The notes under the pieces are model-generated. The model ran no database searches and was not told where the DNA came from. It was given only the letters and a program-made list of their open reading frames with translations. From IMG/VR virus record IMGVR_UViG_3300034071_002561: a stretch of 64,000 nucleotides of DNA. One strand, 5' to 3'. Of this stretch, positions 12,769-44,199 are shown piece after piece (the first letter of the stretch is position 1; each line of letters starts with the position of its first letter). Source of the DNA: an uncultured virus (IMG/VR IMGVR_UViG_3300034071_002561). Taxonomy: Duplodnaviria > Heunggongvirae > Uroviricota > Caudoviricetes. Both the position numbers and the translations under genes were made by a program.

Positions 12769-14673
12769 ATGTCTAAGATCATCGGTATTGACCTCGGCAC
12801 CACCAACTCATGCGTGGCTGTTATCGAGAATGGAAAATCCAAAGTTATTGAAAATTCAGAAGGTGCAAGAACTACACCCTCAATCGTGGCCTACACACAA
12901 GATGAAATCATCGTTGGCGCTTCAGCCAAGCGTCAGGCAGTAACAAATCCCAAAAACACAATCTATGCCAGCAAGCGATTGATTGGTCGCAAGTTCAAAG
13001 AACAGGCAGTGCAAAAAGATCTCGATCTAATGCCCTACGAGATCTATGAAAATTCTAATGGTGATGCGTGGGTTAGAGCACAGGGTAAAGAATTAGCACC
13101 ACCGCAGATTTCAGCAGAAGTTCTGCGCAAAATGAAACAGACCGCGGAGGATTATCTTGGTACAACAGTTACACAAGCAGTTATTACAGTGCCTGCGTAC
13201 TTTAACGACAGCCAAAGACAAGCTACTAAGGATGCTGGACAGATCGCAGGCTTGGAGGTACTCCGTATTATTAACGAGCCTACTGCGGCAGCTCTTGCTT
13301 ATGGTGTTGATAAAGCTGATAAGAAAGATAGGAAAATTGCTGTTTACGACCTTGGTGGCGGTACATTCGATGTTTCGATCATCGAGATAGCCAACGTTGA
13401 CGGCGACAAGCAGATCGAAGTACTAAGCACCAACGGTGACACATTCTTGGGTGGTGAAGACTTTGACCAACGCATCATGGATTTCTTGGTAGATGAGTTC
13501 AAGAAAGATCAAGGAGTGGATCTCAGCAAAGACATGTTGGCTCTGCAACGTTTGAAAGATGCTGCTGAAAAAGCCAAGATTGAATTATCAAGCTCAGCTC
13601 AGACAGACGTCAATCTTCCGTATGTCACAGCAGATGCCAGCGGTCCAAAACATCTGGCGATAAAATTAAGTCGTAGCAAACTAGAACAACTAGTTGCCGA
13701 ACTGATTACACGCTCATTAGAGCCATGCCGTATTGCTCTCAAAGATGCAGGCGTAAGTGCCTCAGATATCGACGAGGTTATCCTTGTTGGTGGTCAAACA
13801 CGCATGCCTAAGGTGCAAGAAGAAGTTGAAAAACTGTTTGGTAAAGCACCACGTAAAGATGTCAACCCAGACGAAGCCGTTGCAGTTGGTGCTGCTATTC
13901 AAGGTGCTGTGCTAGGTGGCGATCGTAATGACGTGCTGTTGTTAGACGTCACTCCACTCTCCTTGGGCATTGAAACCATGGGTGGCGTGATGTCAAAGAT
14001 CATTCAAAAGAATACAACTATCCCAACCAAGGGACAGCAGACATTCTCCACAGCAGAAGACAATCAACCCGCAGTAGATATCAAAGTATTCCAAGGGGAA
14101 CGTGAGCTTGTGCAATATAACAAGCTATTGGGCGAATTCAAACTTGACGGCATTGCACCTGCACGTAGAGGACAGCCACAGGTTGAAGTTACCTTTGACA
14201 TTGATGCCAACGGTATCATGCATATCTCTGCCAAAGACAAAGCCACAGGCAAAGAAAACAAGATCACTATTAAATCTAACAGCGGACTAACAGAAGCTGA
14301 AATTCAAGACATGATCAAAGATGCCGAATTAAATGCAGAAGCAGATAAAAAAGCACGTGAATTGATTGATGCAAGAAATTCAGCAGAGGCGCAGGTACAT
14401 GAAGTTAAAAAAGATCTTGAAGAATTCCGTGCAGAGCTCACAGAAGCAGAAATCACAGAAATTGAAACAGTGATCACTGCAGTTGAAACAGCAGCCAAAG
14501 GCGATGACACTGAAAAGATCACCGAAGAGCTTAATAAAGTTTTCCCGGCAATGAAAACATTGCTGGAAAAAAAGCAGGCTAAAGATCAGGCAACAGCACA
14601 AGCTGAAGCAGGACCTATGCCCGACCAAGATGATGTAGTTGATGCTACCTTCACAGAGAAGAAAGCAGACTAA
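12769..14673 (+). CDS. dnaK: Chaperone DnaK (Hsp70)
   Basis: [35 protein letters not shown]; full length, 634 aa. Confidence 0.98.
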
Positions 14674-32664: not shown

Positions 32665-33065
32665 AAATAGGATTTAGTTTTGGTCGATGTATTCGTGATA
32701 TTGTTAACGGTGAAGTCGGCATCGATGATGTGGCATTTTTAATCACTGCCACCAACATTAAAGATGTCAGTCACTTAGACCATGTGATAGATGTGTATAT
32801 GGGAGAGCCCGGATATCTTCTAGGACTAGATCACCACAGTTGCAAAGAAGTCGCACATCTGCTTTGGAATTCTAATAGAGTGTTGCAACCAAGAGCACAG
32901 GGCATGCACAGACATGCACAGCCAGAAAATTCAGTTTGGGTAGATATGTTTCCCACAGAATGCAGTAAAAATCCTTCGGTCAAAACAGCCTGGGATCATT
33001 ACAGATTTATGCTACATATAACTGAGAACGTTGATAATGAAGCAGTAGAGATTTTTAAACAATAG
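32661..33065 (+). CDS. Hypothetical phage protein
   Basis: MKIGFSFGRCIRDIV; coupled ORF. Confidence 0.65.
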   Translation: MKIGFSFGRCIRDIVNGEVGIDDVAFLITATNIKDVSHLDHVIDVYMGEPGYLLGLDHHSCKEVAHLLWNSNRVLQPRAQGMHRHAQPENSVWVDMFPTECSKNPSVKTAWDHYRFMLHITENVDNEAVEIFKQ

Positions 33066-33073
33066 GAGATGCC

Positions 33074-33259
33074 ATGGTCAAAGAGGGATCAAGATGGGAA
33101 GGTAACGAAGGACAAAAATTTCATGTACTACATGTAATTGAAATCGACGGGCATACATGGGTTCATTATATCAAAGAAAATGCACCCGAAGATTCTAATC
33201 GTGAATATAGCTGTTACATAGAAAGCTTCTTACAACGATTCAGGTCACTGCCAGAATGA
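33074..33259 (+). CDS. Small hypothetical protein
   Basis: AGGAG SD; 61 aa. Confidence 0.65.
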   Translation: MVKEGSRWEGNEGQKFHVLHVIEIDGHTWVHYIKENAPEDSNREYSCYIESFLQRFRSLPE

Positions 33260-33525
33260 TTAGTTTTAGTTTTAATATTCGAGTACCCGGATCAAACAGG
33301 TTCAACAATATCAAATGTTGGCATGGATCTACGCCATTCAAGCACAAATTTTGGGAACTGCAGATCTATCAATCCGCTGATATCGTAGATCTGTTTGTGA
33401 GAATAACCCACAATCAAAGTCACGCTGGTCTACATATGGGTATTGGAATGGTGGGATATAATCTAGAATTCCAGGTCTATGATATAAGACATTGGAACCC
33501 TGAAACCCGCAGATGGCAAACTTGA
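33256..33525 (+). CDS. Hypothetical protein
   Basis: ATGA coupling; 89 aa. Confidence 0.6.
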   Translation: MISFSFNIRVPGSNRFNNIKCWHGSTPFKHKFWELQIYQSADIVDLFVRITHNQSHAGLHMGIGMVGYNLEFQVYDIRHWNPETRRWQT

Positions 33526-33581
33526 GATAATATACGCACTTAATTATGTTATAATACAACTAGGATAAGTAAAGTATACGC

Positions 33582-34157
33582 ATGGAGCAAAAAGTGAAAA
33601 AATCGGAATATTTCAATGCTGAGGATCAGATTGATCTCAAACTGCTAGAATCTAGCACATTTTTCCTTAACGGTGAAATCAACGAAGAATCTGTAGGAGA
33701 ATGTGTGCGGTGGTTTCTCTATGAGAATCTTGATGTAGCCAAGGAAAAAACACTGACACTTTATATTAATTCCACAGGCGGTGATCTTTATCAGGCATTT
33801 GCACTCATAGATGTCATGCAGGCCAGTCCTCATAAAGTACGATGTGTAGGCATCGGTGCAGTGATGAGTGCGGCATTCTTGATCTTTGCTTCAGGCACAC
33901 ACGGTGAACGATACGCTGCCAAAAACACCAGTTTCATGTGCCACCAATTTTCCGAAAGTATGGACAATAAATATCACGATCTCAAAGCCACTATGCGAGA
34001 AAATGACAGCTGTAATGAACGTATGGTCTCAGTTTTGAAAGCAGCCACTGGATTGGCACCCTCGGTGATCAAGAAACGCCTGCTGCCAGCATCAGACGTT
34101 TATCTAACCGCAGAAGAAACTGTGGAAATTGGCGTAGCAGATCATCTACTGGGATAA
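33582..34157 (+). CDS. clpP: ClpP-family protease subunit
   Basis: LYINSTGGD, GAVMSAA (catalytic Ser), FMCHQ (His), DVYLTAEE..G.AD. Confidence 0.88.
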   Translation: MEQKVKKSEYFNAEDQIDLKLLESSTFFLNGEINEESVGECVRWFLYENLDVAKEKTLTLYINSTGGDLYQAFALIDVMQASPHKVRCVGIGAVMSAAFLIFASGTHGERYAAKNTSFMCHQFSESMDNKYHDLKATMRENDSCNERMVSVLKAATGLAPSVIKKRLLPASDVYLTAEETVEIGVADHLLG

Positions 34158-34160
34158 TCA

Positions 34161-34409
34161 ATGAACAATGTCTATACCTTTGATCCCAAGGCCAAGGAAG
34201 ATGAAGAGCGCAAGCAATCACTTTTAGAAGTCATAGATGCTGTGCGAGATCAGATAGAGCGAGGCGAGATTCGAGAACTAGTGGCCTGCAGTTTAGACAA
34301 GGATGGCGAGGCACAGATACATGTCAGTGCCTTGGATCTACCAGGCAGTGTCGGACTGTTTGAAATTGGCAAGCATCTGCTGATCTCACAGACCAATGAT
34401 GTGTTGTAA
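34161..34409 (+). CDS. Hypothetical protein
   Basis: 82-aa ORF following clpP. Confidence 0.65.
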   Translation: MNNVYTFDPKAKEDEERKQSLLEVIDAVRDQIERGEIRELVACSLDKDGEAQIHVSALDLPGSVGLFEIGKHLLISQTNDVL

Positions 34410-34438
34410 AAAAGCCACATAAACAGAGATGATCTAGG

Positions 34439-34467
34439 TTGACACATAAATAAAAAGACCGTATACT
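34439..34467 (+). promoter_or_regulatory. sigma70 promoter P1 of the tRNA operon
   Basis: TTGACA-N17-TATACT; spacer also contains TAAATA. Confidence 0.85.
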
Positions 34468-34522
34468 AGCAGTTGTGTTTAGCAAAGAGTCAAAACTTTT
34501 TTGCCAGAAGTGCAAATAGAGG

Positions 34523-34551
34523 TTGACACAGAGACTAAATAAATGTATAAT
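34523..34551 (+). promoter_or_regulatory. sigma70 promoter P2 of the tRNA operon
   Basis: Perfect TTGACA-N17-TATAAT; spacer also contains TAAATA. Confidence 0.9.
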
Positions 34552-34602
34552 TAACACATGCACTAAAAATAGTGTGTGACTTTCAAGGAAATGAAGAAGA
34601 CA

Positions 34603-34746
34603 ATGAAACACGTATCATTACATATATCTTGTAAATCCGTAGCCCAGGTGGGAGGCTTTATGCCCTCATATTGGCTCGCGATTGATAGTATATCTAATGA
34701 TCGTACACCAGAGCTATTACCGGGGTCCGTGGAGATGTTAGTGTAA
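34603..34746 (+). CDS. Putative attenuator leader peptide (47 aa, all 20 amino acids)
   Basis: MKHVSLHISCKSVAQVGGFMPSYWLAIDSISNDRTPELLPGSVEMLV*; in-frame upstream ATG at 34591; last codons form the antiterminator 5' arm. Confidence 0.65.
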   Translation: MKHVSLHISCKSVAQVGGFMPSYWLAIDSISNDRTPELLPGSVEMLV

Positions 34747-34808
34747 ACATAAAATACACAGCTACTTCAAAGGACCCCAGGAATAAACACCCTGGGGTTT
34801 TTGTTTTT
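34720..34808 (+). terminator. Mutually exclusive antiterminator/terminator (attenuator)
   Basis: Antiterminator GGGGTCC(34722-28)/GGACCCC(34772-78) plus TGGAG/CTTCA and GTGTA/TACAC; terminator ACCCCAGG(34774-81)/CCTGGGGT(34791-98) followed by TTTTGTTTTT. Confidence 0.8.
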
Positions 34809-34820
34809 ATAAAGGAAAAA

Positions 34821-35000
34821 ATGGAACAGATAGATTACAAAAAATTAAATGAACGAGTCGTTGAACAGGCTTATGAAGCTGCTTTTAATCGAAATGAACT
34901 TTCGAAAGAACAACTTCAAAAACTTATTCAAGATAAGTTTGAACGTGCTAGAACATATCACGAATCGTTGGCAAAATTGTCGACGTTTAATGTAAACTAA
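34821..35000 (+). CDS. Small helical hypothetical protein (59 aa), first gene after the attenuator
   Basis: AAGGA SD; MEQIDYKKLNERVVEQAYEAAF...STFNVN*. Confidence 0.6.
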   Translation: MEQIDYKKLNERVVEQAYEAAFNRNELSKEQLQKLIQDKFERARTYHESLAKLSTFNVN

Positions 35001-35236
35001 TAGCACAAAGTGTGAATATCAGGAAACGAGGTCCTGGCTCCGCACTATAAACACGGAGCGAACGGGCGGCCTGTAGGATGAAACTCTTCTTCTAGAGCGA
35101 AAAATTACAGCGTATTAAAGAGCATAGACCTGACCTGGACTGAGATGTCGCAGACTGTGTTCTTTAATACACACTCTCCTACTCCACTTTACAAGGAGGA
35201 CAGATTGACATAGTCGATGGAGAGTGTTACAAATTT

Positions 35237-35325
35237 GGAGCTTGATCCCTACGGCGGACTGTAAATCCGTTGCCTTAATATGTAGGGTGGCTGGCAGTTA
35301 GGTTCGATTCCTTCAGGCTCCACCA
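35237..35325 (+). tRNA. Atypical tRNA-Tyr(GTA): no D-arm, 9/3 acceptor/T stems
   Basis: GCGGA-CTGTAAA-TCCGT anticodon arm, TTCGATT T-loop, ACCA end. Confidence 0.7.
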
Positions 35326-35331
35326 AGTTTT

Positions 35332-35407
35332 GCCTCGTTCATATAACGGTCTATTATATCCGCCTGTCTAGCGGAATACAGGGGTTCGACTCCCCTACGA
35401 GGCGCCA
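35332..35407 (+). tRNA. tRNA-Asp(GTC)
   Basis: Cloverleaf, loop CTGTCTA, GCCA end. Confidence 0.9.
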
Positions 35408-35413
35408 GTTTAT

Positions 35414-35489
35414 TCCCCAGTAGCACAGCGGTAGTTGCACTTGACTGTTAATCAAGGTGTCCGTGGTTCGATCCCACGCTGGGGAGCCA
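35414..35489 (+). tRNA. tRNA-Asn(GTT)
   Basis: Cloverleaf, loop CTGTTAA, GCCA end. Confidence 0.93.
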
Positions 35490-35497
35490 AGTTTTAT

Positions 35498-35572
35498 GGA
35501 CCGTTCGTCTATCGGTTAGGACACTAGGTTTTCATCCTGGTAAGAGGGGTTCGACTCCCCTACGGTCTTCCA
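35498..35572 (+). tRNA. tRNA-Glu(TTC)
   Basis: Cloverleaf, loop TTTTCAT, CCA end. Confidence 0.9.
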
Positions 35573-35578
35573 TATAAT

Positions 35579-35652
35579 GCGGGATTAGTTTAATGGTCAA
35601 ACGAAACCTTGCCAAGGTTTAGTCAGGAGTTCGATTCTCCTATCCCGCTCCA
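35579..35652 (+). tRNA. tRNA-Gly(GCC)
   Basis: Cloverleaf, loop TTGCCAA, TCCA end. Confidence 0.93.
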
Positions 35653-35658
35653 AGTTAT

Positions 35659-35733
35659 ATGCCCTTAGTGTTAACGGCAGCACAACGGTCTCCAAAACCG
35701 CTAGTGGGGGTTCGAATCCCTCAGGGTATGCCA
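35659..35733 (+). tRNA. tRNA-Trp(CCA)
   Basis: Cloverleaf, loop CTCCAAA, GCCA end. Confidence 0.9.
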
Positions 35734-35809
35734 ATTAGTATTATAAGTAATATGCTCGGCCCGGTAATTGCTATATTATGCTATCGAGCAATAATTTAGA
35801 GGATATTGC

Positions 35810-36394
35810 ATGAACGACATCATTATACTAGACAATTTCTTACCTAAGTCATATGAAGATGAAATTGAAAAACATTTTTCTTCATTGGAGTTTCCCTGGT
35901 ATTATAATCCGGGTGTTTCTTATTCACAAGAAGAGAACGCTAAATTTATTGCTAACGATAGCAATATAAAAGAAACCGACGGCTTCGTACATAGATTGAT
36001 CATAGAAAATGCAAAGGTAAGTGGGTATGGCGATCTAGTTAGGCCTATAATGTATTTTGTAGAAGACAAATTTAAAGTAAAGGTTAATTATATCATCAGA
36101 GCAAGAGCCGTAATGATTTATAAAAATTCAGTGTTTGGAGAATTTTATAATGTTCCTCATGTTGACGATATGAACAGGCATATGACATTAATTTACTATG
36201 TCAACGACAGCGATGGAGACACTGTTATCTTCAAAGAGAAATATGTAAATGATATTAGTTACAGTAAAAAGACTGTGGAACGTAGAGTTGAACCTAGAAA
36301 AGGTAGAGCTGTTTTGTTTGACGGGCACCGTTATCATACAGGATCTGTGCCAAAATACAATAACAGAATGTTAATTAATTTCAATTTCAATTAA
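35810..36394 (+). CDS. 2OG-Fe(II) oxygenase
   Basis: PHVD, LIYYVNDSDGDT, GRAVLFDG..YH, RMLINFN. Confidence 0.85.
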   Translation: MNDIIILDNFLPKSYEDEIEKHFSSLEFPWYYNPGVSYSQEENAKFIANDSNIKETDGFVHRLIIENAKVSGYGDLVRPIMYFVEDKFKVKVNYIIRARAVMIYKNSVFGEFYNVPHVDDMNRHMTLIYYVNDSDGDTVIFKEKYVNDISYSKKTVERRVEPRKGRAVLFDGHRYHTGSVPKYNNRMLINFNFN

Positions 36395-36395
36395 T

Positions 36396-36473
36396 AGTGC
36401 GGTGGCAGAGAGGCCCAATGCAAGAGTCTGCAAAACTCTAAAGCCGTGGGTTCAAATCCCACCCGCACTTCCA
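36396..36473 (+). tRNA. tRNA-Cys(GCA) copy 1
   Basis: Loop CTGCAAA, U73, CCA. Confidence 0.92.
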
Positions 36474-36478
36474 ACAAT

Positions 36479-36570
36479 GCCAGCGAGACTTGGTAGTCAG
36501 AGAGGTTTTATAAACCTTTTAGCGCCAGATTAGCGTTCTTGAGAGGGTTCGATTCCCTCCGCTGGTACCA
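36479..36570 (+). tRNA. Atypical tRNA with TAT anticodon (Ile AUA reader), long variable arm, tiny D-loop
   Basis: GCCAGCG/CGCTGGT acceptor, GACT-TGGT-AGTC D-arm, loop TTTATAA, AGCGC/GCGTT V-arm, ACCA. Confidence 0.75.
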
Positions 36571-36574
36571 TTAT

Positions 36575-36652
36575 GTGTCGGTGGCAGAGAGGCCCATTGC
36601 AACGGATTGCAAATCCGTAAAACCGTCAGTTCAAATCTGACCCGACACTCCA
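36575..36652 (+). tRNA. tRNA-Cys(GCA) copy 2
   Basis: Loop TTGCAAA, U73, CCA. Confidence 0.92.
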
Positions 36653-36663
36653 GTAGAGTAAAT

Positions 36664-37257
36664 ATGTCTATGCTACCTGTTTATGAAAAATATGCGTTAT
36701 TGTCTAATAATGAAAAATTATTTTTATTCAATTTCGTATCTGGATTAAAATCAAATTCAATAATTTTAGAAGTAGGAACTTTTCTCGGTGGAAGTGCTGC
36801 TATAATGGCATCTTCTAATCCACAAGTAATCGTTCATACTATAGATGATTATAATGACAGACACGACAGGCATAAGCAATCAGTAAGTCTTATGTTGCTA
36901 GAGTCTCTAGGTGAGAACCCTAGAACTAAAGAAAATGTAGAATTGTTATTAAAAGATTACAAAAATATATTTTTCCATAAAGGTAAAAGCCCTGATAATT
37001 TTAAAAATTGGGGAACACCGATTGATGTCTATTTCGAAGATGGTCTTCATAGAAATCCTACGTTAGAAAATAATGTAAATTACTGGACAAAATTCTTATC
37101 AAAAAATGGTTACGTGATATTTCATGATCATCGACCGTTTCTTGAAACAGATCATCCTAGTAGATTTGAAGACGTAATTGATATCGTTCAAAGATTATCT
37201 AGTAATTTTGAGATAATCTCACAAGAAGAATCTTTGATTATTTTACAACAAAAATAA
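36664..37257 (+). CDS. Class I SAM methyltransferase (Methyltransf_24-like); start 36664 or 36670
   Basis: ILEVGTFLGGSA, IDVYFEDGLH, GYVIFHD. Confidence 0.8.
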   Translation: MSMLPVYEKYALLSNNEKLFLFNFVSGLKSNSIILEVGTFLGGSAAIMASSNPQVIVHTIDDYNDRHDRHKQSVSLMLLESLGENPRTKENVELLLKDYKNIFFHKGKSPDNFKNWGTPIDVYFEDGLHRNPTLENNVNYWTKFLSKNGYVIFHDHRPFLETDHPSRFEDVIDIVQRLSSNFEIISQEESLIILQQK

Positions 37258-37264
37258 AATTTAT

Positions 37265-37342
37265 GCCCCTCTAGCCCAATTGGTATGAGGCGTTTCTCTC
37301 AAAAGGAAAATCGTCCCGGTTCGAGTCCGGGGAGGAGTACCA
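37265..37342 (+). tRNA. tRNA-Leu(CAA) with short variable loop
   Basis: TTTCT-CTCAAAA-GGAAA anticodon arm; one acceptor mismatch; ACCA. Confidence 0.75.
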
Positions 37343-37347
37343 AGTTT

Positions 37348-37438
37348 GGATGTAATAGTTGGTACGAGTGGGCATAAATTGCTTGCCCATGACATGTTTC
37401 GAGCATGAAGGTTGGTTCGATTCCAACAGCATCCATCA
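37348..37438 (+). pseudogene. tRNA-like element without a canonical anticodon loop
   Basis: GGATGT/GCATCC acceptor, GTTGG-TTCGATT-CCAAC T-arm, TGGGCA-9nt-TGCCCA arm, ends ATCA. Confidence 0.55.
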
Positions 37439-37444
37439 AGTTAT

Positions 37445-37534
37445 GGAAGTGTGGCTGAGTCTGGCTTAAGGCAGCAGTCTTGAAAACTGAAGTTCCGCAA
37501 GGGGCCGTGGGTTCGAATCCTACCACTTCCGCCA
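37445..37534 (+). tRNA. tRNA-Ser(TGA)
   Basis: Loop CTTGAAA, long V-arm, GCCA. Confidence 0.93.
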
Positions 37535-37540
37535 ATGTAT

Positions 37541-37614
37541 TCCCGGATAGTTAAATGGTATAACAGTCGGCTGATAACCGGCCATTACAAGTTCGATTCT
37601 TGTTCTGGGAACCA
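37541..37614 (+). tRNA. tRNA-Ile(GAT)
   Basis: Loop CTGATAA, ACCA. Confidence 0.88.
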
Positions 37615-37665
37615 ATTTTTAAAAAGGAGATCTGTCATGACAAGTGACAAGAGTGATAAGATGTC

Positions 37666-37740
37666 GGGGGTATAACTTAACGGCTAAAGTAGTAGGCTTT
37701 TAACCTATTAATCAGAGTTCGATTCTCTGTGCCCCTACCA
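37666..37740 (+). tRNA. tRNA-Lys(TTT)
   Basis: Loop CTTTTAA, ACCA. Confidence 0.9.
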
Positions 37741-37807
37741 TATAAAAACACATTTTTCTGAACGCCAGTCAGTTGCCGTGCAGAGTAAGATTAGTGTGTT
37801 TCTATAT

Positions 37808-37882
37808 GGTAATGTAGCATAATGGTAGTGCAGCACCTTCATACGGTGTACAGTGAAAGTTCGACTCTTTCCATTACCACCA
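37808..37882 (+). tRNA. tRNA-Met(CAT) elongator (Ile2 not excluded)
   Basis: GCACC-TTCATAC-GGTGT, ACCA. Confidence 0.85.
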
Positions 37883-37887
37883 ATTAT

Positions 37888-37963
37888 CTCTCTAAAGTGT
37901 TATCTGGTTGCATCCGCGGTTTGGGGCCGTGTGGTCTAGGTTCGAATCCTAGTAGGGAGACCA
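37888..37963 (+). tRNA. tRNA-Pro(TGG)
   Basis: Loop TTTGGGG, C1-G72, ACCA. Confidence 0.9.
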
Positions 37964-37965
37964 AG

Positions 37966-38180
37966 TTTTGTAAGTGTCAGCAAGTGAAGTCACGCTGTTC
38001 AGTATTCTTCGAAGGTACTGTGCAGTAGAAGGCAAGCGGGTTCGATGCCTGGCCTATCTGTAATGGATAGGCGATAGATGGAATCCACGCTGGATGAATC
38101 CCAAGTGACGTACCGACTCCCGTCCGGACTTGTATAATCGGGTGAATGGTGCTGATAACGTGGTAGCACTACTTACAAAT
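37966..38180 (+). ncRNA. Unidentified multi-branched structured RNA
   Basis: TTTGTAAGT/ACTTACAAA and GTCAGCA/TGCTGAT closing stems, GTCAC/GTGAC, several internal hairpins; no credible ORF. Confidence 0.5.
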
Positions 38181-38189
38181 TCAATCTGT

Positions 38190-38263
38190 TGGGGGTTAGT
38201 GTAGCGGTAACACTACAGACTTTGACTCTGTCATCACTGGTTCGATCCCAGTACCCTCTGCCA
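38190..38263 (+). tRNA. tRNA-Gln(TTG)
   Basis: Loop CTTTGAC, GCCA. Confidence 0.9.
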
Positions 38264-38267
38264 CAGA

Positions 38268-38352
38268 GTTCCGATCATCGCGGTAAGTGTAGCCGGCCGC
38301 CTATAAGGTCATCGATGATCGTGCCGTCGCGGGTAAGCGGCATCTCGGGAAC
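38268..38352 (+). ncRNA. Unidentified GC-rich structured RNA
   Basis: GTTCC/GGAAC, CGATCATCG/CGATGATCG, TGCCG/CGGCA stems. Confidence 0.45.
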
Positions 38353-38354
38353 AT

Positions 38355-38429
38355 CGGTCCGTAGCTCAGTGGAAGAGTTCTGGTCTTCGAAACCAGCTGT
38401 CGGGAGTTCGAATCTCTCCGGACCGGCCA
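38355..38429 (+). tRNA. tRNA-Arg(TCG)
   Basis: CTGGT-CTTCGAA-ACCAG, GCCA. Confidence 0.9.
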
Positions 38430-38442
38430 TTACAAGGAGATT

Positions 38443-38649
38443 ATGATGAAACCTATGACTTTTAAAAATCGTATGAATAATGAACGTTTTGTCTGTGATG
38501 ACGTCCGTGCTGTGGAAGTTATAGACGGAGAAGAATATCTCATAGTTCATCGACCCAATGAACATCGTGTTTTTAAGATGCGAAAAGATGCTTTGGAAAA
38601 AGATACCACTGTAGTGAAAGGGATATCACGAAACTTTGCGAAAGTTTAA
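38443..38649 (+). CDS. Small hypothetical protein (3' end overlaps tRNA-Arg(GCG))
   Basis: AAGGAG SD; 68 aa. Confidence 0.65.
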   Translation: MMKPMTFKNRMNNERFVCDDVRAVEVIDGEEYLIVHRPNEHRVFKMRKDALEKDTTVVKGISRNFAKV

Positions 38650-38678
38650 GTTCACGTTCGACTCGTGGCAGTGGTACC
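38605..38678 (+). tRNA. tRNA-Arg(GCG)
   Basis: ACCACTG/CAGTGGT acceptor, AAACT-TTGCGAA-AGTTT, CACG-TTCGACT-CGTG, ACCA. Confidence 0.8.
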
Positions 38679-38685
38679 AAACAAT

Positions 38686-38760
38686 GGAGTCTGTGATGTA
38701 ATGGTAGCATCCGAGATTGTGATTCTCGTCGCGTGGGTTCGATTCCCATCATTCTCCCCA
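38686..38760 (+). tRNA. tRNA-His(GTG)
   Basis: Loop TTGTGAT, G-1/C73, two acceptor mismatches. Confidence 0.85.
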
Positions 38761-38765
38761 AAAAT

Positions 38766-38841
38766 GCTGCTTTAGCTGATGTGGTCATAGCGGCGGTCTG
38801 AAGAACCGTTGAACCAGGTTCGATTCCTGGAGGCAGCACCA
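38766..38841 (+). tRNA. tRNA-Phe(GAA)
   Basis: Loop CTGAAGA, ACCA. Confidence 0.92.
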
Positions 38842-38929
38842 TATAACACTCTAGTGAAAGAACGAGCGTAGCTCTTAGGGCCTAGCCTGCGGCATTGCGG
38901 ATTGCGGTGGCTAGTGTGTTTTTATATAT

Positions 38930-39013
38930 GCGAGTGTGGAGAAATGGTATACTCAGGAGACTTAAAATCTCCCGTCTTAGGGCATGAGGGTTCGAGTCCC
39001 TCCACTCGCACCA
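38930..39013 (+). tRNA. tRNA-Leu(TAA)
   Basis: Loop CTTAAAA, V-arm, ACCA. Confidence 0.93.
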
Positions 39014-39038
39014 GAAATTTAGCATTGCTGTGTTAATA

Positions 39039-39674
39039 TTAATCAAAAATTCTAGCAGCTTCTTCAAAGCTACTAATTTGATTTATTGGAAATCTTAGAC
39101 TAAGGCTTAATCTCGAATAATATCCTCGATTATAATACACATTGTGAGGAATGTCTGTCCGAACCAATAAAGGGTGTGTAGCAGTTAGTTCACATTGATC
39201 AATACAGATTACATCTTCGGTGCAGTAGTTTTTATATGTAATACCACTACCATACAAGTAATCGAACATTGAAGATTTATATGGATTCGGTTGTAAAATC
39301 GGAAAGACTTCACAATTTTTTTTGAACGTCCACCACTTGAATGCAGATTCTGAATCTGTTAATTCAAAATTAATTGCAAACGGAGTTTTTATCCATTTAT
39401 TATTTTCTAAAAAAACATCAGTATGTATATGAGGATCTTCTTTGTGTTTGCTTGGATCACCTACGTGTCCAAAAATTATCATAACATTAGGAAATACGTT
39501 TTTTGATCTAAAAAAATGTTTCGCTTCGTTTGACAGAAAATATCCTGTTTTTAAAGATGTATACAAATATTGTCTTGAGTTTGGATGTTTGTTAGATTTA
39601 GATTGAATGAGCTCGTCGAGAACATTTTCCATTAATGGATTGAATGAAATAGATAGTTGTTTAAAACACTGCAT
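39039..39674 (-). CDS. Hypothetical cupin/2OG-oxygenase-like protein inserted antisense in the tRNA array
   Basis: HIHTD...AINF...LVRTDIPHNV...RLSLSLRF. Confidence 0.6.
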   Translation of the reverse strand: MQCFKQLSISFNPLMENVLDELIQSKSNKHPNSRQYLYTSLKTGYFLSNEAKHFFRSKNVFPNVMIIFGHVGDPSKHKEDPHIHTDVFLENNKWIKTPFAINFELTDSESAFKWWTFKKNCEVFPILQPNPYKSSMFDYLYGSGITYKNYCTEDVICIDQCELTATHPLLVRTDIPHNVYYNRGYYSRLSLSLRFPINQISSFEEAARIFD

Positions 39675-39696
39675 CTGATATTTATTTCTAAAACTC

Positions 39697-39725
39697 TTGA
39701 CAAGAGACTAAAATTGTCGTATAAT
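39697..39725 (+). promoter_or_regulatory. Internal sigma70 promoter of the tRNA array
   Basis: TTGACA-N17-TATAAT. Confidence 0.85.
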
Positions 39726-39739
39726 AGTTGTTGTAGTTA

Positions 39740-39823
39740 GCCCCGGTGGTGGAATGGTAGACACGTCGGTCTTAGAAGCCGATGTCGCAAGGCGTGAGAG
39801 TTCGAGTCTCTCCTGGGGCACCA
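39740..39823 (+). tRNA. tRNA-Leu(TAG)
   Basis: Loop CTTAGAA, V-arm, ACCA. Confidence 0.93.
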
Positions 39824-39991
39824 TTAAGAAATAGCATTAGCGGGTATCGTCTATGGACGCATAGACTTATGAAGAATAGGGCCATCTTACTCTTCTGAAA
39901 TAACCGTGGACAATGGCTGATGAGGAGAATCGAACTCCACTCAGAAATCCGTCTCATCCCATAGGGTGTAATGTTATTTTTTAATGGTTAT

Positions 39992-40065
39992 GCCTCGTTA
40001 ATTTAATGGTAGAATGCCCTCCTTACAAGTGGGATACGGCAGTTCGATTCTGTCACGAGGTACCA
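39992..40065 (+). tRNA. tRNA-Val(TAC)
   Basis: Loop CTTACAA, ACCA. Confidence 0.88.
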
Positions 40066-40072
40066 GTAATAC

Positions 40073-40158
40073 GGAAGACTCCCATAATGGTATTGGAGCG
40101 GCTTGCTAAGCCGTCGATCGGCAACGGTTTCGGGGTTCGAGTCCCCGGTCTTCCGCCA
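40073..40158 (+). tRNA. tRNA-Ser(GCT)
   Basis: Loop TTGCTAA, V-arm, GCCA. Confidence 0.92.
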
Positions 40159-40177
40159 AATTTTAAAAAGGAAATAT

Positions 40178-40357
40178 ATGAAACCTACTAAGAACTACAA
40201 GATGTCAAAGCCACTCAAGGCCAGCCTTGCACTGTCAACATTCCAAGATCCACATCAAAAGGGGCAGTGGAAACGTGCTATGATTGACGCTGAACTATGT
40301 GCGGCCATCCAACCTAAACGTGAAAAAGGTCGCAAGCCCGACGCAGTCAAGCAATAA
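40178..40357 (+). CDS. Small basic hypothetical protein
   Basis: AAGGA SD; MKPTKNYKMSKPLK... Confidence 0.65.
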   Translation: MKPTKNYKMSKPLKASLALSTFQDPHQKGQWKRAMIDAELCAAIQPKREKGRKPDAVKQ

Positions 40358-40363
40358 AATTCT

Positions 40364-40437
40364 GGGGGATTAGTTAAATGGGATAACATCGGCTTTGCAA
40401 GCCGAGATTGAGAGTTCGATTCTCTCATCCTCCACCA
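40364..40437 (+). tRNA. tRNA-Ala(TGC)
   Basis: G3.U70, loop TTTGCAA, ACCA. Confidence 0.93.
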
Positions 40438-40454
40438 GAGATATATAGTATTAG

Positions 40455-40528
40455 GCCCTTTTAGTATAATGGTATTACACCTGTTTTGTAATCAGGTTAC
40501 GGCAGTTCGATTCTGTCAAGGGGCACCA
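40455..40528 (+). tRNA. tRNA-Thr(TGT)
   Basis: Loop TTTGTAA, ACCA. Confidence 0.9.
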
Positions 40529-40544
40529 ATTTTACCAAAAAGTA

Positions 40545-40573
40545 TTGACAAACACAGTAAAGAATGTTATACT
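40545..40573 (+). promoter_or_regulatory. sigma70 promoter
   Basis: TTGACA-N17-TATACT with extended -10 TG. Confidence 0.8.
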
Positions 40574-40591
40574 TGTTTTGTTGCGTTAGAA

Positions 40592-40842
40592 ATAACGTGA
40601 CCGGCGAGATGAAGGGTAGATGAGAAAAGACACAAGGCGTGAGCTTCATGCTTACTCCGAACTTACAATCCAACTGAACATTGGAACGTGTTTGTGTGAT
40701 CCGATCCCTAATAGAATGTCATTTGTTAATCGGAAATATATGGACCTCTGTGTATTGTTAATTGCACATTGTCAAAGGAAGATTACAAACCTTCCGTTGT
40801 CCTTTGTCCGGTCTTTTACTTGACCTTTCGTCAAACCGTTAT
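40592..40842 (+). ncRNA. Long-range-paired RNA (ncRNA or structured 5' leader)
   Basis: ATAACG/CGTTAT, GATGAAGGGT/ACCTTTCGTC, AAAAGAC/GTCTTTT, ACAAGG/CCTTTGT nested stems. Confidence 0.5.
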
Positions 40843-40865
40843 ATTTTTAAAAAGAGAGAAAATCA

Positions 40866-41441
40866 ATGAACATCACACTGCGCAAGGCCAATGCTGTACA
40901 ACACAGCATCACAGAAGCAATCAAGAACATCAAAATTGATCTCACTGTAGAGATCAATGAGTTCCAAACAGTCGAGGACGTTATCACTAAAGCTAACTCC
41001 ACCTTGGTAGAAAATGACGGCCGCCGTCAGAAGCTGACCATGGCTCTGTACAATATCCGTGCTCTAGTAGGCACAGCCAATACCGCCAGTGGTATCGACA
41101 CTGCATTGGCCAAAGCAGCCTTTATCGACAAGCGTATTGGTCAGCTAGAGGAATTGGCCAAGGCCACAGAAATCACTGCTCTAGATGTAATCAAAGGCAA
41201 GCTGGACAAAATCCGCAACGACAAGAGCGAATCTACTCGCAGTCGCATCTACGGCTACAGCGACACAGTTACCACAGGTGTGCTAGGACTAGAACAGATC
41301 GCACAGGCCAAAGCAGAAGTGTTGAGTCTTAAAAAGCAGAAACAGAAGATCAACGACGAAGTGTTAGAACTCAACATCAAGACAGAGATTCCTCTTTCAG
41401 AAGATGTAGTTGCTGTATTGCAGGCCGAAGCATTAATTTAA
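40866..41441 (+). CDS. Coiled-coil hypothetical protein
   Basis: MNITLRKANAVQ...LELNIKTEI; helical. Confidence 0.7.
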   Translation: MNITLRKANAVQHSITEAIKNIKIDLTVEINEFQTVEDVITKANSTLVENDGRRQKLTMALYNIRALVGTANTASGIDTALAKAAFIDKRIGQLEELAKATEITALDVIKGKLDKIRNDKSESTRSRIYGYSDTVTTGVLGLEQIAQAKAEVLSLKKQKQKINDEVLELNIKTEIPLSEDVVAVLQAEALI

Positions 41442-41447
41442 AACTAT

Positions 41448-41521
41448 CGCGGGATAGAGAAACGGTAACTCACGAGTCTCATAAGCTCGAGATCCTGGTT
41501 CGATTCCGGGTCCCGCAACCA
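41448..41521 (+). tRNA. tRNA-fMet(CAT) initiator-like
   Basis: C1/A72 mismatch, loop CTCATAA; anticodon stem lacks the full three G-C pairs. Confidence 0.85.
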
Positions 41522-41535
41522 ACCATAAGGTACGT

Positions 41536-41763
41536 ATGAAAAATAAATCACTGAGTCGTGGTCCCGAAATTGACACAGAAAAATGTGTGGAAAATATAGG
41601 CGGTAATAGATTTGACTTGGTGCTGATTGCATCAGCTCGTGCCAGAGAGCTCAGTCGCAGACACAAGGCAGCTGAACTACAGACGCAGATGAACGCACCT
41701 GTGGCAGCACTGTTAGATGTGCAGTCAGGTGCGGTGGGTCGAGAATACCTGAAAAAAGTCTAG
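41536..41763 (+). CDS. rpoZ: RNA polymerase omega subunit-like
   Basis: EKCVENIGGNRFDLVLIASARARELS...PVAALLDVQSG. Confidence 0.85.
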   Translation: MKNKSLSRGPEIDTEKCVENIGGNRFDLVLIASARARELSRRHKAAELQTQMNAPVAALLDVQSGAVGREYLKKV

Positions 41764-41792
41764 TCTTAAGATTATAGATTAAATAAATCTAT

Positions 41793-41866
41793 GCGGGGTT
41801 CGTATAGTGGTAATACCTGAGCCTTCCAAGCTCATGCGGAGAGTTCGATTCTCTTACCCCGCTCCA
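41793..41866 (+). tRNA. tRNA-Gly(TCC)
   Basis: Loop CTTCCAA, TCCA. Confidence 0.93.
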
Positions 41867-41880
41867 AATAAAATAACAAG

Positions 41881-42417
41881 ATGAAAATAATCGTTACCGG
41901 ACATACGAGAGGTCTAGGAAAAGGCATTTATGATTATTTTTCTAAAGACAATGAAGTTGTTGGATTTTCAAAAAGTAATGGGTTTGATATCACTGACCCT
42001 GATTGTAGAACAGAAATAGTAAATGCATCTGAAGATGCAGATATTTTTGTGAATAACGCACATGTTAATGGAGATTCTGCACAACTGCATTTACTTAAAG
42101 ATATGCACGAACTTTGGAAACATCAAAATAAAATTATAATTAATGTAAGTAGTTTTAGATCCACTTTTGTAGATGGCAATTTTGAATTTTCAGAGTCTTT
42201 TCGAGTTAAGAAAGAGTTGGATCTTTTTTGTACAAAAAATCAACACGTATTAAAATATCCTTATCTAATAAATCTTAGACCCGGCCTTATTGATACAGAC
42301 AGAACACGCAATGAACAGGGTAAAAAAATGAATGTCCAAGACGTAATTGTGGTATTAGATTTTATTTTGAAAAACAAAGATATTTTTAAGATACTAGATA
42401 TAGGCTTTAAAGGCTGA
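41881..42417 (+). CDS. Short-chain dehydrogenase/reductase-like
   Basis: IVTGHTRGLGK, DIFVNNA, IINVSS, PGLIDT; catalytic YxxxK appears as FRVKK. Confidence 0.75.
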   Translation: MKIIVTGHTRGLGKGIYDYFSKDNEVVGFSKSNGFDITDPDCRTEIVNASEDADIFVNNAHVNGDSAQLHLLKDMHELWKHQNKIIINVSSFRSTFVDGNFEFSESFRVKKELDLFCTKNQHVLKYPYLINLRPGLIDTDRTRNEQGKKMNVQDVIVVLDFILKNKDIFKILDIGFKG

Positions 42418-42447
42418 AAAAATTATTAAATTCTCAGAAGACACATA

Positions 42448-43023
42448 ATGTACAAAACGATAGACAAAAATGAAATTTTTCAAAAATTTGATTTCTCATC
42501 GTTGATCACCAAGCAAGATGATCTCGAAGCCTGTGAAATTATCAAGACGATCATAGCTGACGGTAACTATTTTACTAATTCGCCTAAGTATCAAACCAAA
42601 GAAAACATCTTTGCTAGATCAGAAGCTGTATGGTTAAAATACCGTGTGAGTTTCATGATGAGTGCGTTCATGTATCTAGGCCGTGAAGCCAAAATATCTA
42701 ACATGATGGCCTGGAGTTTTATGACCAATCTCGAGGGTGCCGAAAACCGTGATAATCTCTGGCATCATCATTGGCATCCTACTACCCCCACCGCACAAAT
42801 ACTCAGTGGTATTTGGTATCTACACATACCCGAGGATGTTAAAGATCGAGACTATTGCGGTACAGAGATGGCACCGGGGGGTCCTCAATCTGATGACAGA
42901 TATTTTGTGCGTCCCGCAGATGGTAATTGGTTGATCTATCCCGGCAACATGTGGCATCGCCCCGGAATCGTACAGAGCGATCAATACAGATTTGTCTTAG
43001 CCGCAGACATTCAAATAGACTAA
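42448..43023 (+). CDS. Putative 2OG-Fe(II) oxygenase
   Basis: WHHHWH, LSGIWYL, LIYPGNMWHRP, RFVLAAD. Confidence 0.65.
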   Translation: MYKTIDKNEIFQKFDFSSLITKQDDLEACEIIKTIIADGNYFTNSPKYQTKENIFARSEAVWLKYRVSFMMSAFMYLGREAKISNMMAWSFMTNLEGAENRDNLWHHHWHPTTPTAQILSGIWYLHIPEDVKDRDYCGTEMAPGGPQSDDRYFVRPADGNWLIYPGNMWHRPGIVQSDQYRFVLAADIQID

Positions 43024-43024
43024 A

Positions 43025-43099
43025 CTGGCCATAGTATAATGGATAATACAGCGAGCTTCTACCTCGCGAATGTGGGTTCGATTCCTGCTGGCCGGACCA
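43025..43099 (+). tRNA. tRNA-Arg(TCT)
   Basis: GCGAG-CTTCTAC-CTCGC, ACCA. Confidence 0.92.
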
Positions 43100-43103
43100 C
43101 GCC

Positions 43104-43177
43104 GCTCTCATAGTATAAAAGCATTACACTACATTGGTAATGTAGAAACGGTGGAGCATTACCACCTGAGAGCACCA
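43104..43177 (+). tRNA. tRNA-Thr(GGT) with non-canonical T-loop and D-loop
   Basis: CTACA-TTGGTAA-TGTAG; T-loop AGCATTA instead of TTCRANY; ACCA. Confidence 0.7.
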
Positions 43178-43178
43178 C

Positions 43179-43207
43179 TTGACAAAAATTGATAAATGTA
43201 GTATAAT
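43179..43207 (+). promoter_or_regulatory. sigma70 promoter
   Basis: TTGACA-N17-TATAAT. Confidence 0.85.
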
Positions 43208-43235
43208 ACTAGTATACAAATTATCAAAGGCATAT

Positions 43236-43658
43236 ATGCAGATCATCATGGAAGGTAGGGCTAGTCCTACCAAATCAATCATAGAAACCTCCGCGAATTT
43301 CTTTGCCAAAGAACTGGGATTGAGCCGTAGCCGGTTCACTCTGTTGATCATGACTGAACGAGGAATGGCCCGTAAAGAAGGCATGCGAGGTGCGGTGCAT
43401 AAAGTAGGTCCAAAATTTCTTACCATGATCATAGACTCTGGGCTAGAGTTTGAAAGACTGATAATCACCCTGGCACACGAAATGATACATGTCAAACAAT
43501 ATGCTCGCGGTCAGATCAAATCCAGCCGCAGTTGCAAAACACACTATTGGATGGGCCGGCACATACGTAAAAGCTATTACGATCAACCTTGGGAAATCGA
43601 AGCCTATACCAAAGAACGTGTGCTAGCCAATAAAATTTTTGCGATAACAGGAGCATGA
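43236..43658 (+). CDS. Zinc metallopeptidase-like (HExxH)
   Basis: TLAHEMIHVKQY...PWEIEAY. Confidence 0.8.
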   Translation: MQIIMEGRASPTKSIIETSANFFAKELGLSRSRFTLLIMTERGMARKEGMRGAVHKVGPKFLTMIIDSGLEFERLIITLAHEMIHVKQYARGQIKSSRSCKTHYWMGRHIRKSYYDQPWEIEAYTKERVLANKIFAITGA

Positions 43659-43659
43659 C

Positions 43660-44199
43660 ATGAATCCATGGATACAAAACGTAGCACTCAGCGATATCCG
43701 TAAAGGACATCACATCGACGCAGGCATAAACTCTATGCTGATCCAGATCTGCGATCCGCCCGGAGATTTTCCTACTCCTAAACATCAGTTCAAAGAAGTC
43801 CATCAGTTCCAATTCTTGGACATCGAAGAAAAAGACTTTGCATTGGAAGAAGTCATGCGTTGCAGTCAATCACAGGCTGATGAGCTGGTTCGATTACTGC
43901 AACACGCACTAGAGAATCGTATGAATGTAGTTGTTCACTGTCACGCCGGCGTTTGCCGCAGCGGGGCGGTTTGCGAAATCGGTGTTATGCTAGGCTTCCG
44001 CGACACTGAAGCGTTTCGTTCACCGAACCTACTTGTCAAGCATCGCATGATGCGAGCATTGGGTTGGCTCTACGATGAACAGGAACCTCACTCGATCAAT
44101 GGAGTACCGGTTCCAGAAGATTGGACCAACGACAACGAGAAAGTCTTTATGCTAGCCGCTGAACGCAGAGCTCGAAGAGAAAGAGAAGGTGACATATGA
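43660..44199 (+). CDS. Protein tyrosine / dual-specificity phosphatase-like
   Basis: VVHCHAGVCRSGAV (CX5R). Confidence 0.8.
   Translation: MNPWIQNVALSDIRKGHHIDAGINSMLIQICDPPGDFPTPKHQFKEVHQFQFLDIEEKDFALEEVMRCSQSQADELVRLLQHALENRMNVVVHCHAGVCRSGAVCEIGVMLGFRDTEAFRSPNLLVKHRMMRALGWLYDEQEPHSINGVPVPEDWTNDNEKVFMLAAERRARREREGDI

Follow-up and report, generated by a model that had tools for sequence, protein, structure and literature searches.

The subject of this report is a candidate regulatory element that lies upstream of a large set of tRNA genes in an uncultured virus of the class Caudoviricetes (IMG/VR record IMGVR_UViG_3300034071_002561). The whole stretch of DNA that was analysed, 64,000 nucleotides (nt) long, is called the window in this text; it comes from an uncultured freshwater (lake) phage and is present in lake-water metagenomes. 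Judged from its sequence and from those of its relatives, the element is likely to be a ribosome-mediated leader-peptide transcription attenuator that heads a phage tRNA operon and senses overall decoding speed, and the phage probably makes more tRNA when ribosomes decode slowly. Two sets of results carry this reading, namely, that the end of a short open reading frame (ORF) forms a hairpin with the same strand that an intrinsic terminator needs, and that the peptide encoded by this ORF contains all 20 amino acids in most of the relatives although its sequence is not conserved. A preliminary description of the window had taken the same segment to be a candidate pan-codon attenuator in control of the tRNA array. 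The comparative tests favour an attenuator, while the claim about codons and the scope given to the array had to be revised, as shown below. The promoters, the ORF, the hairpin and the competing terminator that had been described are all present, within a base or two, and the parts of the element are the following.

34439-34467, + strand: distal sigma-70-type promoter, TTGACA-17-TATACT, with 11/12 consensus matches
34523-34551, + strand: proximal sigma-70-type promoter, TTGACA-17-TATAAT, with 12/12 consensus matches, at an aligned position that is conserved in homologs
34558-34577, + strand: stem-loop in the 5' untranslated region (UTR), followed by a purine-rich unpaired stretch; 8-pair stem in the minimum-energy fold
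34603-34746, + strand: leader ORF of 47 codons plus TAA with all 20 amino acids; ATG at 34603, TAA at 34744-34746
34610-34704, + strand: long imperfect hairpin within the ORF, codons ~3-34 (z = -3.43 in the window)
34715-34786, + strand: antiterminator hairpin; its 5' arm is made of the last ORF codons, the stop codon is near the apex and the 3' arm carries GGACCCC
34774-34809, + strand: intrinsic terminator, ACCCCAGG (34774-34781) pairing with CCTGGGGT (34791-34798), then the U-tract TTTTTGTTTTT

Competing hairpins at the end of the leader ORF

The outer pairing of the antiterminator is between GGGGTCC (34722-34728) and GGACCCC (34772-34778), and it encloses two inner helices, TGGAG (34730-34734) with CTTCA (34765-34769) and GTGTA (34741-34745) with TACAC (34755-34759). 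The 3' arm of this hairpin and the 5' strand of the terminator overlap at ACCCC(AGG). The terminator stem is G+C-rich and has 8-9 base pairs; a consensus scanner missed it because its loop is 9 nt long and the scanner accepts at most 8. Free energies calculated by RNAfold for the window are -28.0 kcal/mol for the antiterminator hairpin and -15.9 kcal/mol for the terminator.

Two samples of related loci were collected from viral contigs. For the first one, IMG/VR was queried with the two flanking proteins, p82 (34161-34409) and p59 (34821-35000), which gave 71 loci, and the 480 nt 5' of p59 across these loci gave 41 unique sequences, the window included; 34 of these make up the core alignment, and 39 leaders could be aligned and served as the tips of a tree. 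The second sample consists of 120 loci for which the sole selection criterion was an 18-nt motif from the RNA switch. Apart from three chance matches and one locus truncated at the edge of its contig, every one of them (116) has a leader ORF. More than 100 distinct versions of the element are found in lake and other aquatic viral contigs, and it is widespread. Among cultured phages, blastn with 34161-35340 and tblastn with p59 gave no match, and tblastn with the leader peptide gave chance matches only (E >= 7).

The arrangement seen in the window is the same throughout the first sample. The terminator is present in all 41 homologs, the antiterminator has a median free energy of -27.6 kcal/mol and the terminator one of -14.5 kcal/mol (n = 41), and in the minimum-energy fold the stop codon of the leader is enclosed by the antiterminator in 41/41. 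The two hairpins overlap in every homolog, by 5-9 nt with a median of 8, and the distance from the end of the antiterminator 5' arm to the stop codon is 5-16 nt (median 11).

The preliminary description had named covariation of both hairpins as a check. For the antiterminator this came out clearly: in the 34-sequence core 98.8% of the alignment cells are paired, 5/10 pairs show compensatory change, none of 500 shuffles matches this, and RNAalifold agrees. The terminator covaries in the divergent lineages, whereas its covariation in the core is not significant, a point to which we return. In the divergent lineages the strand shared by the two hairpins occurs as GGACCCC, GGACCCT, GGAACCC, GAACCCT, AACCCCGGA, AGCCCCGGA, GGACCCTGGA and GAAACCCCTGAAGA, and for at least eight variants a match is seen in the upstream arm as well as in the 3' arm of the terminator. 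Such dual tracking of one strand is the signature expected when two helices exclude each other and neither is dispensable.

An open frame rather than a conserved peptide

An ORF of 35-51 amino acids that ends 74-86 nt 5' of p59 is found in 41/41 unique upstream regions, and homologous leader ORFs differ in length by multiples of three. The leader frame is open in all 41 sequences; the +1 and +2 frames are open in 0/41 and contain on average 3.1 and 4.7 stops, respectively. A leader ORF with its stop in a fixed register in homologs had been named as a check, and it is borne out. The peptide itself, on the other hand, is not under ordinary purifying selection because the third codon position has no excess variation: over 46 aligned columns the entropies at codon positions 1, 2 and 3 are 0.91, 0.80 and 0.92, that is, all three vary alike. 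The residues at the C-terminus shift together with the covariation of the hairpin. Neither the leader peptide nor p59 has a match in Pfam or PHROGs, and p59 also has none in the protein Atlas.

These data bear on a different explanation of the segment, which is that it is a self-contained gene for a 47-amino-acid micro-protein, or for a dual-function small RNA, that is expressed early from strong promoters. The terminator would then merely end the transcript, the hairpins would stabilise the RNA, and the tRNAs would be unregulated and transcribed by read-through or from other promoters. This would agree with the unit having promoters and a terminator of its own, with the unusually strong structure of the entire 255-nt RNA when compared with shuffles (z = -5.04), with the W, D and R residues that are invariant in the 34 core peptides, with contigs from RNA libraries that reach across the leader between the promoter region and the terminator, and with a promoter that is found directly before the first tRNA at some loci (7/38). 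It is nevertheless an unlikely explanation. Neither purifying selection on the peptide nor a protein family match was found, the C-terminal residues change along with the hairpin, and such a gene would leave unexplained why each rare amino acid occurs in one copy at moving positions, as described in the next section, and why the antiterminator is made from the strand of the terminator and covaries with it.

Amino-acid completeness of the leader

All 20 amino acids are present in 106 of the 128 unique leader peptides, while 17 peptides have 19 and five have 18. Both samples contribute: 37/41 leaders of the first are complete, the remainder having 18-19 amino acids, and so are 69/87 new unique leader peptides of the second. 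Several null expectations are far below this. In the long ORFs of the window itself, 264 of 12576 windows of 47 amino acids (2.1%) hold all 20; random draws with the composition of the proteome or of the family are complete in 2.5-3.1%, open frames drawn from the base composition of the leaders in 2.5%, and even draws with uniform amino-acid composition in 11.7%. Among the 56 ORFs of the window that start with ATG and are 42-51 amino acids long, the leader is the only one that has all 20. When a second copy of the element was looked for in the window, no further complete ORF of 42-51 amino acids was found.

The rare residues are kept in number but not in place. Cysteine occurs exactly once in 38/39 aligned leaders, distributed over 14 columns, and once in 114/128 leaders; histidine is always present in the 39 aligned leaders, in 12 columns, and tyrosine likewise in 11 columns. 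Because these residues change position, shared ancestry does not explain the completeness. Neutral evolution was also simulated along the tree, starting from a complete root and with per-column rates, in six settings of 300 runs each. The mean number of complete tips out of 39 was 6-9 when residues were drawn from per-column pools and 2-4 when they were drawn from family-wide pools, with a maximum of 30. The observed number, 35/39, was reached in 0/300 runs in each of the six settings. At the level of sequence comparison, these results show that the property of having all 20 amino acids is under selection and that the peptide sequence is not. The constraints on the leader are, therefore, three, namely, an open frame, RNA pairing and amino-acid completeness.

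It had been proposed that the leader is pan-codon, on the ground that 31 different triplets are used in the 32 codons from 10 to 41, GAT alone being repeated. This count is correct, and against real genes it is extreme: no run of at least 32 codons with at most one repeat was found in 1283 windows of 47 codons from the 53 long ORFs of the window, where the longest run is 29 and the mean is 18.2. Given the peptide, however, the codon diversity is as expected, with 33 distinct codons in the leader vs 33.2 +/- 2.0 (p = 0.64). The long non-repeating run is due to the amino-acid diversity, and the pan-codon leader was rejected for the window in favour of one that is pan-amino-acid; what is selected is completeness and not codon diversity. 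Over the family, the excess of distinct codons is slight when compared with the phage's own codon usage (mean z = +0.97).

Proposed mechanism and alternatives

In the mechanism that we propose, the two strong promoters would drive a short mRNA with the 47-codon ORF that contains all amino acids. The last ~8 codons of this ORF make up the 5' strand of the antiterminator, and the 3' strand of the antiterminator doubles as the 5' strand of the terminator. When a ribosome keeps pace with the polymerase, it would cover GGGGUCC while 34772-34809 is being made, the terminator would form and transcription would stop at ~34809. When the ribosome lags at any codon, or when the ORF is not translated, the antiterminator would form first and the polymerase would enter p59, a structured RNA and ~21 tRNAs. 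Naked RNA should read through because the antiterminator is transcribed first and is more stable by ~12 kcal/mol. Since the leader samples all 20 amino acids, the element would report a shortage of any aminoacyl-tRNA or a general slowdown of decoding. The supply of every aminoacyl-tRNA would be summed in the transit time of the ribosome and, with tRNA as the regulated product, the loop would act as a homeostatic feedback. Whether the element goes as far as being a universal sensor of aminoacyl-tRNAs, in which a shortage of any charged tRNA opens the tRNA operon and recovery closes it, is a narrower proposal to which we give an even chance. Candidate causes of such a shortage would be starvation, a mismatch in codon usage with a streamlined host, and anticodon nucleases of the host.

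The polarity could also be the reverse of this. Translation of the leader could favour read-through, for instance if a closely coupled ribosome hinders the terminator as in pyrBI, and transcription would terminate when the leader is not translated; coupled ribosomes are known to suppress terminators close to them (PMC4824070). In 41/41 homologs, however, 24-32 nt separate the stop codon from the start of the terminator stem, which is out of reach of a ribosome at the stop codon, and on this account a pyrBI-type polarity is unlikely. Furthermore, without a ribosome the earlier and stabler antiterminator should already give read-through. We consider reverse polarity to be the least probable of the readings discussed here and very improbable in itself.

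Another possibility is that the element is indeed a translation-coupled attenuator with the polarity that we favour but that it senses the general status of translation, such as ribosome availability, host shut-off or ribosome-targeting toxins and antibiotics, and not the supply of aminoacyl-tRNAs. The completeness of the leader would then serve some other end, for example, avoiding reliance on any single tRNA. The geometry expected is identical, the leader does not correspond to the set of tRNAs that the phage encodes, and leader ORFs that sense stalling, such as the BmrCD leader, control transcription in this way (PMC4191407). A sensor of this kind would not require every amino acid, whereas the leaders show strong selection for completeness, and the genes that would be regulated are tRNA genes at every locus examined. 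For these reasons we hold it to be improbable, about as much so as the micro-protein or small RNA.

Several observations weigh against attenuation by decoding speed as set out above. The terminator is paired in 94.5% of the cells of the core alignment, in which eight rows with a shorter loop are misaligned, but it varies little there, and its covariation is reached by 30/500 shuffles and is not significant because the stem is nearly invariant in the 34 sequences. The invariant TGG and GATCG, and also the long hairpin within the ORF, which has a mean z of -2.97 across the family and is below -2 in 32/41 homologs, have no role in the model. The putative ribosome-binding site is also unusual: the Shine-Dalgarno-like AAGGA is 13 nt before the leader ATG in the window and 11-18 nt before it in most homologs, a spacing that is too distant for a canonical Shine-Dalgarno sequence, and a motif of this kind of at least 4 nt is missing in 8/41 homologs. 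By contrast, p59 has AAGGA 5 nt 5' of its ATG. The tRNA genes are not all behind the terminator alone. Further consensus promoters are located within the array at 39697, 40545 and 43179, and the sole tRNAs for Val, Ala and Thr are behind them; moreover, a near-consensus promoter is present 8-20 nt before the first tRNA in 7/38 loci, that is, 37 relatives plus the window (L058, L070, L011, L063, L037, L041 and L062). In the window there is a degenerate copy of it, TTGACA-17-TACAAA (35205-35233), that ends 3 nt before the first tRNA-like gene.

A correspondence between the leader and the phage's own tRNAs was looked for in two ways and rejected in both, which also counts against the proposal. 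The codons are not matched to the tRNAs, since the Lys codon AAG occurs in 0/9 leaders of phages with tRNA-Lys(CTT) vs 2/14 leaders of phages without it. Nor does the leader mirror the tRNA set, a test that rests on two cases: the leader of L192 lacks Leu and Val yet its array has tRNA-Leu, and the leader of L193 lacks Asp yet its array has tRNA-Asp.

Relation to known attenuators

In the trpL, hisL, leuL, thrL, pheL and ilv leaders, the position of the ribosome on a short promoter-proximal ORF decides which helix forms, and the ilvGMEDA and thr leaders sense 2-3 related amino acids by means of clustered codons. T-box riboswitches recognise uncharged tRNA by direct binding and work without an ORF. 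Why large phages carry near-complete sets of tRNAs is debated, the reasons put forward being codon usage, host shut-off and escape from defences that cleave tRNA, and to our knowledge little is known about how phages regulate their own tRNA genes.

The phage element resembles the enterobacterial trpL/hisL-type attenuators in having a short promoter-proximal ORF, a terminator before the regulated genes and an antiterminator that shares a strand with it, and also in that the ORF ends inside the antiterminator, where a ribosome is placed to cover one strand (41/41). It differs from them in four respects. The leader lacks their hallmark, a series of codons for the amino acid that is sensed; no codon is repeated in tandem at all, and each of the 20 amino acids is present about once, the rare ones mostly once and dispersed. 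The ORF is about three times longer. There is no anti-antiterminator pairing of the 1:2 type that overlaps the antiterminator, which is a further reason why untranslated leader RNA should read through. Finally, the output is phage tRNA genes and not biosynthetic enzymes. As in the multivalent ilvGMEDA and thr attenuators, one leader would integrate the supply of more than one aminoacyl-tRNA, but here 20 amino acids are dispersed along the ORF. With T-boxes the element would have in common that the charging of tRNA is tied to the choice between terminator and antiterminator; unlike in T-boxes, a conserved ORF is its core, and Rfam gave no T-box match. Indeed, no Rfam family other than tRNA was found across 33000-44000 (E up to 1), and none across 34430-35240 (E up to 10). 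It is unlike the pyrBI coupling attenuator, the leader ORF of which extends into or through the hairpin of the terminator, because its ORF ends before the terminator hairpin, at the distance given above.

Several published accounts provide further points of comparison. Leader-peptide attenuators of amino-acid operons are covered in PMC1183508 and PMC3082878. In the bmrCD leader of B. subtilis, slowing of the ribosome on an upstream ORF turns a terminator off and induces resistance genes (PMC4191407), and polycysteine short ORFs of mycobacteria are leaderless (bioRxiv 10.1101/834739), as some divergent members of the phage family appear to be. The signal in these systems is a drug or a single amino acid, whereas the composition of the phage leader suggests that all aminoacyl-tRNAs are sensed, and it is tRNA genes that follow. 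In the titles and the beginnings of abstracts that the literature search covered, supplements and subscription journals being outside it, no description of attenuation of tRNA genes or of a leader with all amino acids was found. If the element is a universal sensor as outlined above, this would be the first known leader-peptide attenuation feedback on tRNA genes, and no earlier attenuator would be known to sense the complete amino-acid alphabet. Attenuation of the trp/his type would then have gained the entire alphabet as a new input and tRNA genes as a new output. The phage would gauge decoding capacity directly and supply tRNA on demand. The element, which is ~260 nt long, could double as a compact reporter of translation stress.

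Downstream genes and the presumed scope of control

The features that follow the terminator are listed below.

34821-35000, + strand: p59, a gene for 59 amino acids, the first gene past the terminator; conserved in IMG/VR relatives
35001-35235, + strand: conserved structured RNA between p59 and the tRNAs (z = -3.93; no Rfam match)
35236-35325, + strand: tRNA-Tyr-like gene, in which the GTA anticodon loop, the T arm and CCA align with the tRNA-Tyr of relatives
35236-39013, + strand: first tRNA block, made up of the tRNA-Tyr-like gene, 20 called tRNAs and two enzyme ORFs; presumed regulated output

On the + strand between 34551 and 39697 there is no promoter site with 11 or 12/12 matches. The stretch behind the terminator that has no other consensus promoter is limited to 34821-39013, which comprises p59, the structured RNA and ~21 tRNAs. 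Control of the tRNA array by the element, as originally suggested, is tenable for this first block; the rest of the array is behind the three internal promoters mentioned above. In the relatives, too, tRNA arrays are found downstream at every locus of the first sample that is long enough, always on the same strand; the sole loci without tRNAs (L032, L051 and L071) stop 200-330 nt past p59.

In the window ARAGORN called 28 tRNAs for 19 amino acids, and Rfam adds one at 43104-43174. Tyrosine is covered solely by the tRNA-like gene at 35236-35325, which ARAGORN did not call, which scores 28.6 bits against the Rfam tRNA-Sec family and whose D-arm and variable region are aberrant. The structured RNA that precedes it has compensatory changes in 24/38 consensus pairs (17 sequences), the conserved motifs GGAAACGAGGTCC and CGAACGGGCGG, and a long helix formed by CGTATTAAAG and CTTTAATACACAC. 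Amid the tRNAs of the first block there are two enzyme ORFs, one 2OG-Fe(II) oxygenase-like (35810-36394, + strand) and the other SAM methyltransferase-like (36607-37257, + strand). It is possible that they act in the modification or repair of tRNA.

Promoters and the 5' region

Every one of the 41 homologs has one or more near-consensus promoters before the leader, and in 36/41 there are two in tandem. In the window the -10 box of the proximal promoter ends 51 nt before the leader ATG. The stem-loop of the 5' UTR is formed at the same location of the alignment by homologs that differ in sequence, and the 22 nt upstream of the leader ATG are on average 76% purine. In six divergent lineages (L009, L034, L045, L046, L059 and L060) the proximal -10 box ends only 7-10 nt before the leader ATG, which suggests that their leader mRNAs are leaderless or nearly so. 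Many relatives have a palindrome, TGTGGC-N6-GCCACA, immediately 5' of the distal promoter, of which the window has a degenerate form (34400-34422); this palindrome might terminate transcription of the upstream gene or act as an operator.

RNA-library contigs over the region

Contigs from four RNA libraries match the region. One of them, X17 (300 nt), spans 34512-34813, another, X18, spans 34476-34793, and the others cover p59; these contigs are assemblies, some of them from relatives and with DNA carry-over possible, and they carry no information on transcription, ends, strand or level. In two of the libraries the summed contig depth is 166-196 at 34761-34811 vs ~6 over the remaining leader. 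This high depth may reflect k-mers that are common to many related phages, or it may come from a stable 3' fragment. X17 passes from the terminator (34808) straight into sequence that is like 35008-35040, and because of this junction one relative seems to be without p59.

The source phage and the remainder of the window

Apart from ~30 tRNA genes, the window has genes for a tmRNA, DnaK (12769-14673), ClpP (33582-34157) and a CHASE2-cyclase. By the cyclase gene, the nearest named relatives are Methylophilales phage Melnitz, with 52% identity, and pelagiphage HTVC008M, with 35%. The tmRNA gene (170-620, + strand) is of the permuted, two-piece type and encodes a tag of 31 residues; in several relatives (L038, L041, L044, L046 and L062) a tmRNA lies 1-3 kb upstream of the attenuator. 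Between 48000 and 64000 the G+C content falls from ~0.42 to 0.33-0.38 and the orientation of the genes becomes mixed, and this drop together with the mixed orientation suggests that this part of the window is a different genome module.

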